A DNA stretch of 64,000 bases, taken from Candidatus Levyibacteriota bacterium (GTDB lineage: Bacteria > Patescibacteriota > Microgenomatia > Levybacterales > UBA12049). A program made the translations under genes and the position numbers. Of this stretch, positions 29,131-32,568 are shown one piece after another. Under the pieces are notes generated by a model, which made no database searches, was not told the origin of the DNA, and saw nothing but the letters and a program-made list of their open reading frames with translations. Each line of letters starts with the position of its first letter. The stretch's first letter is position 1. Where the stretch lies: contig DAIDHK010000003.1 in NCBI GenBank assembly GCA_027459725.1, positions 931 to 64,930 on the forward strand. The letters run 5' to 3'.

Positions 29131-32568
<3,438 letters not shown>

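Follow-up and report, generated by a model that had tools for sequence, protein, structure and literature searches.

Campylobacter jejuni lacks mismatch repair, and its G8 tracts switch at rates of 1e-4 to 1e-3 per division (PMC8355987). Tracts that inactivate genes are typically enriched at the 5′ end of the gene (PMC2831843). In Patescibacteria, a chromosomal, origin-proximal T4SS arrangement has been described, and the peptidase and lysozyme homologues encoded downstream of virB4 in Candidatus Southlakia epibionticum are reported to be essential for epibiotic growth (PMC12102498). In the literature that was searched, repeat-mediated phase variation was not reported for either Patescibacteria or Saccharibacteria. 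Here we describe an A6G8 tract in a T4SS-associated cell-wall hydrolase gene on a Levyibacteriota-like chromosome (Patescibacteria), within a window of 64 kb, i.e., the whole stretch of DNA that was analyzed. The G8 run is probably an incidental, slippage-prone coding homopolymer that has no dedicated function.

The A6G8 tract, its host protein and its gene neighborhood

The tract AAAAAAGGGGGGGG (A6G8; 31546-31559, + strand) is read in frame as AAA AAA GGG GGG GGT (K806 K807 G808 G809 G810) and lies within the host peptide ...EEEEPQNKKGGGLFPTSAF..., also written ...EEEEPQNKKGGGLFPTSAFKYGIISTAAAVLIMTFVIDL... (Table 1). An earlier model-made note on this DNA (hereafter the sequence-only reading) had placed it at these positions inside the codons for NKKGGGL; coordinates and frame were confirmed. 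The tract is at 70% of gene length and 7 codons upstream of the sole TM helix. Kyte-Doolittle analysis with a 19-residue window gave a peak of 1.93 at aa 817-839, and no other region of the protein exceeded 1.6; the earlier statement that the tract lies just upstream of a TM helix thus agrees with the only strongly hydrophobic stretch.

The effect of tract length was determined by in silico editing. G7 resulted in a stop after 820 aa and G9 in a stop after 817 aa, whereas the frame was retained with G5 or G11. The +1-frame ORF in the ORF list ends at 31594. A one-base change in either direction led to a stop 7-10 codons past the last Gly of the tract, ahead of the TM helix, as the sequence-only reading had proposed for +1 or -1 slippage. 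The product of one-base slippage would be a cytoplasmic fragment of ~810 aa lacking the entire extracytoplasmic part. Contingency loci are recognized by a mononucleotide G/C tract, at least about 7-8 long and located in an ORF or promoter, and by a frameshift with premature stop upon a one-base change. G8 has the required length and location, and the frameshift and stop were obtained in silico.

Table 1. Positions of the tract, its host gene and neighboring features in the window
Feature	Positions	Strand	Remarks
977-aa ORF	7762-10695	-	no Pfam family
T4SS-pilin-domain proteins (two)	12182-14872; 18637-19206		
1073-aa ORF	20001-23222	-	no Pfam family
PrgI/VirB3-like protein	24670-26241		
(CTACTC) x3.8 array	25817-25839		in PrgI-like gene; perfect, in frame
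TraC/TrsD-like ORF	26247-26897	+	216 aa
VirB4-like ATPase	26941-29091	+	716 aa; immediately upstream of host gene
(CTACTC) x8.2 array	28904-28952		perfect, in frame; (Thr-Pro)n at VirB4-like C-terminus
Host ORF	29131..32568	+	1145 aa; single-pass T4SS-associated cell-wall hydrolase, directly downstream of VirB4-like gene
N-terminal ~805 aa, predicted cytoplasmic	29131..31545	+	no hydrophobic segment; no Pfam, NCBIfam or PDB match
(CAACRG)n array	30047-30099		in host gene, in frame; (Thr-Ala)6
A6	31546..31551	+	Lys806-Lys807; basic "positive-inside" patch preceding TM helix
G8 homopolymer	31552..31559	+	GGG GGG GG(T), Gly808-Gly810
Single TM helix, aa 817-839	31579..31647	+	YGIISTAAAVLIMTFVIDL...; Kyte-Doolittle
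Off-frame stops	31581..31594	+	TAA 31581-31583 (G9 or -1 ribosomal shift); TAA 31592-31594 (G7)
DUF11-like beta-sandwich, aa ~866-970, predicted extracytoplasmic	31726..32040	+	phmmer hits to P0011-P0013
GH73-like peptidoglycan hydrolase domain, aa ~986-1135 (predicted)	32086..32535	+	N-acetylglucosaminidase-type, lysozyme-like fold
381-aa ORF	between host gene and CHAP gene		no family match
CHAP-domain protein	33766..34626	+	Pfam CHAP E=5e-7; would be the cluster's second cell-wall hydrolase
Big_5 protein	34628-35338		
dnaN and dnaA	35339..38109	-	opposite strand to T4SS cluster
IS-type transposase gene	38413-39489	-	HTH, rve integrase core, Mu-transposase C
rpmH; rnpA; yidD-like ORF	39645-39779; 39785-40105; 40140-40343		followed by yidC
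C7 on + strand (G7 in gene on - strand)	46739-46745		phosphoglycerate kinase (pgk), 94% of gene; codons GGT GGG GGG

Direct sequence searches of Pfam, NCBIfam and PDB with the host protein and its parts were essentially empty. The N-terminal part contains conserved blocks at aa 1-205, ~420-500 and ~570-655, separated by low-complexity linkers that are T/Q/S/P-rich and G/S/E/P/N-rich. It is probably cytoplasmic, since it has no N-terminal hydrophobic segment and the hydrolase would need to be outside the cell. The residues of P0011-P0013 that were matched by phmmer are those called DUF11 by Pfam, and TIGR04226 matched this domain weakly (E=1.8e-4). No direct Pfam match to DUF11 was obtained with the window protein; the DUF11-like domain of the sequence-only reading therefore holds by way of intermediate homologues.

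Homologues of the last ~150 residues include phage-like proteins and a family of proteins that combine TM, hydrolase and M23-peptidase parts. This C-terminal segment contains an invariant Glu1045 (domain position 70) in the motif IGIQESALG. A profile built from the C-terminal homologues was compared with PDB and matched 8yxk_A (glucosaminidase domain of a C. difficile endolysin; E=4.7e-34) and pneumococcal LytB 7pj3 (E=3.8e-12). Matches to EmtA and EtgA (SLT/GH23) and to goose-type lysozyme were weaker, with E about 5e-5 to 1e-2. A single-sequence AlphaFold2 model of aa 800-1145 was unusable (pLDDT 35), and an alignment-based model of the last 170 aa was used instead (pLDDT 86). The top Foldseek matches of this model were LytB, Ecd09610 and AtlE (prob 0.94-1.0, TM-score 0.49-0.65). 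By profile and model, the C-terminal domain is GH73-like, a predicted glucosaminidase. Pfam Glucosaminidase (PF01832) did not match the window protein, and matched its homologues P0006 and P0007 below threshold.

The sequence-only reading had called this domain SLT, a family that corresponds to GH23 (Pfam PF01464). No Pfam SLT match was obtained even at E up to 10, and the matches to GH73 proteins were far stronger; SLT is thus the wrong family. The designation "VirB1-like" is appropriate to the role of the protein (in a T4SS cluster, after VirB4) but not to its family. The annotation of the host gene is corrected accordingly to a single-pass protein that has a GH73-like rather than an SLT domain and a large cytoplasmic extension without recognizable family.

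The C-terminal hydrolase module has apparently been swapped among related loci (L002 ~12700-13120 and L003 ~12480-12886, compared with the GH73-like domain here). The homologues P0002 and P0010 have another domain at the C-terminus, with the motif ...ACES...GLFQ or ...TES...GLYQ, and P0002 has a weak Pfam SLT match (E=0.035). The N-terminal part, the helix and the DUF11-like part are common to the window protein, P0002 and P0010 despite the differing C-terminal module.

As in chromosomal (MPF-FATA-like) T4SS of Patescibacteria, VirB4, TrsD/TraC-like, PrgI/VirB3-like and VirB2-like pilin genes are clustered near dnaA/dnaN. Cumulative GC skew reaches its minimum at ~34-42 kb, where dnaN and dnaA are located; by these sequence features, the cluster is adjacent to the predicted chromosomal replication origin. 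The closest syntenic locus, L002, belongs to a metagenome-assembled genome of Candidatus Levyibacteriota; the second, L003, belongs to another metagenome-assembled genome, from unclassified Patescibacteria. Both contain the TraC/TrsD-like and VirB4 gene pair. The VirB4 function is split between two ORFs here (Table 1) and in the related loci (216 + 709 and 215 + 688 aa); because the same split is conserved in both, it is not a frameshift artifact.

Several other features of the neighborhood were observed. The first of the two pilin-domain proteins is large (896 aa) and carries the T4SS-pilin domain in its last ~70 aa. The position of the 1073-aa ORF is taken by a 981-aa ORF in L002 and a 934-aa ORF in L003. 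The transposase gene lies in the dnaA-rpmH gap, likely the oriC region, and no convincing terminal inverted repeats were found for it. This gap measures ~1.5 kb here; in the syntenic Levyibacteriota locus it is ~220 bp long, and the transposase gene is missing from that locus. Slippage in the three hexanucleotide arrays would alter linker length and keep the frame; by sequence, these arrays look more repeat-like than G8. A background without MutS/MutL mismatch repair would permit high slippage; no mutS or mutL was seen among the ORFs of the 64-kb window scanned against Pfam, a scan that covered all but a few of the ORFs of at least 150 aa.

Chance expectation and conservation of the G8 run

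The G+C content of the window is 38%. No G/C run in the 64 kb other than G8 reaches a length of 8; after it, the longest are a C7, two G6 and a C6. A6 runs number 82 in the window, and an A6 before G8 is unremarkable. The expected number of G-only runs of at least 8 per window was 0.08 (independent bases) to 0.26 (first-order Markov), and that of C-only runs was 0.10 to 0.15 under the same models. A stricter null was obtained by shuffling synonymous codons within each of 42 ORFs in 2000 trials, with proteins and per-gene codon usage fixed. The shuffle gave a mean of 0.49 G/C runs of at least 8 in the 64-kb window vs. 1 observed; 39% of trials contained one or more such runs. The description of G8 as "very unusual" in the sequence-only reading was therefore overstated. 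Three G/C runs of length 6, one of length 7 and one of at least 8 were observed, vs. shuffle expectations of 5.1, 0.9 and 0.49; since the two spectra match, there is no enrichment of G/C runs. Tracts of contingency loci are over-represented relative to composition or codon usage, and in the 64-kb window such over-representation was not found (P = 0.39). For the host gene alone, the shuffle probability of a run of at least 8 was 0.06.

GGG makes up 14% of Gly codons in the window ORFs. Gly-Gly-Gly tripeptides occur 11 times in these ORFs, including 3 in the host protein, where the other two use GGA and GGT codons. One G8-encoding case is therefore unsurprising. The region around the tract (aa 661-810) contains 18 Gly per 150 aa, is of low complexity, and aligns poorly between orthologues, with many indels.

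Runs of similar length were observed in other genes. The G7 in pgk, the second-longest G/C run in the window, is a housekeeping-gene case of the same kind. The 23-kb L002 locus has a C8 in the PrgI-like gene (5903-5910; Pro-Pro-Pro), a C7 (13240-13246) in the small ORF that follows the orthologue of the host gene, and a G7 (16530-16536) in dnaA. Neither here nor in the nearest relative are G/C runs of 7-8 restricted to surface genes.

An exhaustive HMMER search of 1.84 billion cluster representatives (about 15 billion proteins) revealed only three relatives of the N-terminal/linker part: P0001, which is truncated at a contig end; P0002 (1039 aa); and P0010 (963 aa). Their identity is 35-40%, and the gene for each of them directly follows VirB4. 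P0002 and P0010 are single ORFs with the same layout and position as the host protein. No relative of >40% identity was found among the about 15 billion proteins, and neither truncated forms of 817-820 aa nor length variants were found in the search of the cluster representatives. A word-indexed search of 5.8 billion proteins gave one homologue, in which the contig end falls before the tract; the same type of search with the C-terminal part found nothing in the 5.8 billion proteins. Scans of GTDB genomes and JGI metagenomes gave only the same two genomes, with distant orthologues. No exact copies of the target, VirB4, DnaN or L34 proteins are on record.

The basic patch before the helix is kept in both orthologues that cover the site: P0002 has CAG AAA AAA AAT CGT GGC TTG (KKNRGL), and P0010 has AGA AAA AGG CGC CGT AGT (RKRRRS). 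No G run of at least 6 was present anywhere in the P0002 or P0010 gene. For a contingency locus, the tract or a repeat at the same site would be expected to persist in orthologues, and these two, at 35-40% identity, do not retain the tract; non-conservation at this level of identity is weak evidence. The wider group of TM + GH73-like proteins (P0003-P0009, P0014 and P0024) showed no GGG or PPP before the helix. In the L002 orthologue, the site equivalent to A6G8 has an A8 (12100-12107), and a one-base change there also truncates the protein. Lys codons in the window are 847 AAA vs. 337 AAG, and A/T runs of at least 8 occur 10 times per 64 kb. The L002 A8 is the expected outcome of AAA-biased Lys codons where such A/T runs are common.

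Explanations of the tract

In the preferred explanation, an incidental coding homopolymer, G8 would simply encode three Gly after a Lys-Lys patch, at the end of a disordered Gly/Ser/Glu/Pro-rich cytoplasmic linker that precedes the helix. The protein would be arranged with ~805 aa inside, then the helix, and the DUF11-like domain and GH73-like glucosaminidase outside. The run may have arisen by drift of synonymous Gly codons (GGG GGG GGT) in this fast-evolving linker. It would be physically slippage-prone and would give rise, at an elevated rate, to truncation mutants lacking the anchor and ectodomain, and it would not be a selected on/off device. We infer that the topology in the membrane is as given here and that mutability of the tract was not selected for. 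A chance origin accounts for everything observed at the tract. The location of G8 at 70% of the gene rather than at its 5′ end counts for the incidental explanation (PMC2831843). As a product of random synonymous codon choice in a Gly-rich linker, the tract would have little significance.

A true phase-variation locus, in which slipped-strand mispairing toggles G8 to and from G7 or G9 in replication, is in our judgment unlikely. Such a locus would switch reversibly between the full-length anchored hydrolase and a fragment of ~817-820 aa without the helix, DUF11-like and GH73-like domains. The early stop might also lower expression of the downstream genes (381-aa ORF, CHAP, Big_5), and subpopulations would differ in T4SS or cell-wall-remodeling activity. 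The confirmed tract, frame and truncation outcome are what this explanation calls for, and eight G are long enough for high-rate switching in bacteria without mismatch repair (PMC8355987); however, G8 is at the lower length limit and far into the gene. It lies at a domain boundary right in front of the helix, but the linker that contains it is Gly-rich and evolves fast. As the longest G/C run in 64 kb, in a gene of surface-exposed host-interaction machinery, it has the typical setting of contingency tracts, and the host gene belongs to a T4SS cluster with variable pilin genes (PMC12102498). The host-gene shuffle probability of 0.06 points the same way, whereas the window as a whole has no excess of G/C tracts over the null, and runs of 7-8 are also present in pgk and dnaA. 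The truncation-prone A8 at the same pre-helix site of the L002 orthologue would fit a conserved switch, but Lys codon bias and the frequency of long A/T runs explain it, and the G run itself is missing from both orthologues covering the site. No length variants or truncated homologues appeared among about 15 billion proteins. By analogy with Ca. Southlakia epibionticum, the one Patescibacterium tested, where T4SS hydrolases are reported to be essential for growth (PMC12102498), a frequent OFF state would be costly. Judged from sequence, phase variation is mechanically possible, and none of the tests that were run supports it. We give a low probability to the specific proposal that G8 is a working switch of the origin-proximal T4SS in a Patescibacteria (CPR) bacterium attached to other bacteria, with the anchor and the extracellular DUF11-like/GH73-like module stochastically turned off and the 800-aa cytoplasmic module kept. 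If true, it would be, as far as the searched literature shows, the first reported repeat-mediated phase variation in Patescibacteria, and would mean that ultrasmall host-attached bacteria diversify their host-interaction machinery within a population by classical hypermutable tracts.

RNA-level programmed recoding would proceed by -1 ribosomal frameshifting on the in-frame heptamer G GGG GGU or by slippage of RNA polymerase on A6G8. One genotype would then yield the full-length anchored protein and a truncated cytoplasmic isoform in a fixed ratio, like dnaX tau and gamma. We consider such recoding very improbable. G GGG GGU is formally an X XXY YYZ heptamer in the zero frame; the -1 frame reaches a stop 7 codons later, and L002 shows an in-frame A AAA AAU at the equivalent site. 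However, the window contains 170 in-frame slippery heptamers, or one per 109 codons, with A AAA AAU the commonest; the motif is therefore uninformative, and the idea of a dnaX-like frameshift signal was set aside. L003 has no heptamer. G GGG GGU is not known to be an efficient shift site in bacteria. Folding of the RNA downstream is better than that of shuffled sequence (z = -2.4, 3/200 shuffles as good), with a stem beginning ~7 nt past the run, but the predicted fold is weak and multibranched. Rfam revealed no element here, and no known RNA family except one tRNA-Ser.

It is also highly doubtful that the tract length is an assembly or base-calling artifact, with a true length other than 8. 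On long-read and some short-read platforms, errors arise most commonly in homopolymers. However, with eight G the frame runs uninterrupted through two parts, each of which has homology to orthologues encoded by single ORFs, and any length error other than by a multiple of 3 would have disrupted the ORF. An artifact is unlikely because G8 joins two halves that form one contiguous stretch in the orthologues. A 3-base error would mean one Gly more or fewer and nothing else.

Two further roles were considered and rejected. For a terminator or promoter role of the run, no terminator-like site was found in 31000-33000, and the count of promoter-like sites was not above the shuffle level. For re-initiation past the tract to give a separate ectodomain, the sole nearby ATG is inside the helix and has no Shine-Dalgarno-like sequence.

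Comparison with known systems

The tract shares with the poly-G/C loci of Campylobacter jejuni, Neisseria and Haemophilus an intragenic G8, a surface-related gene and truncation by a one-base frameshift. Those loci (PMC8355987, PMC2831843) are length-polymorphic, occur many per genome beyond chance, are usually G9-G10 or longer, and are often near the 5′ end. In contrast, the tract described here shows no excess over the null and no conservation, and is at 70% of the gene. With dnaX-type -1 frameshift sites it has in common an in-frame heptamer, a stop close by in the -1 frame and a degree of RNA structure downstream; it differs in that the heptamer is of a weak type, is not conserved, and represents a motif very common by chance in this window.

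The predicted hydrolase domain matches in profile and fold the GH73 enzymes S. pneumoniae LytB, S. aureus AtlE and C. difficile endolysin Ecd09610, with a conserved catalytic-type Glu in an (I/A)xES motif. Unlike these enzymes, it has no direct Pfam Glucosaminidase match and its TM-scores, at 0.55-0.65, are modest; its activity is predicted from profile and model. Like the monoderm T4SS hydrolases with the VirB1 role, PrgK (pCF10), TraG (pIP501), CD419 and TrsG, the host protein would be membrane-anchored, with its hydrolase domain outside, and is encoded next to VirB4. A CHAP-domain protein is found in both settings, as a separate gene in the window. The host protein differs from PrgK, TraG, CD419 and TrsG in having a GH73-like rather than SLT/GH23 catalytic domain, and an unusual cytoplasmic N-terminal extension of ~805 aa.

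The cluster has the same gene set beside dnaN/dnaA as the Patescibacteria T4SS described near dnaA, and nothing essential differs (PMC12102498). It looks like another example of that published arrangement, and a useful by-product of the analysis is that the window can be assigned to this known class of dnaA-adjacent T4SS clusters in Patescibacteria.
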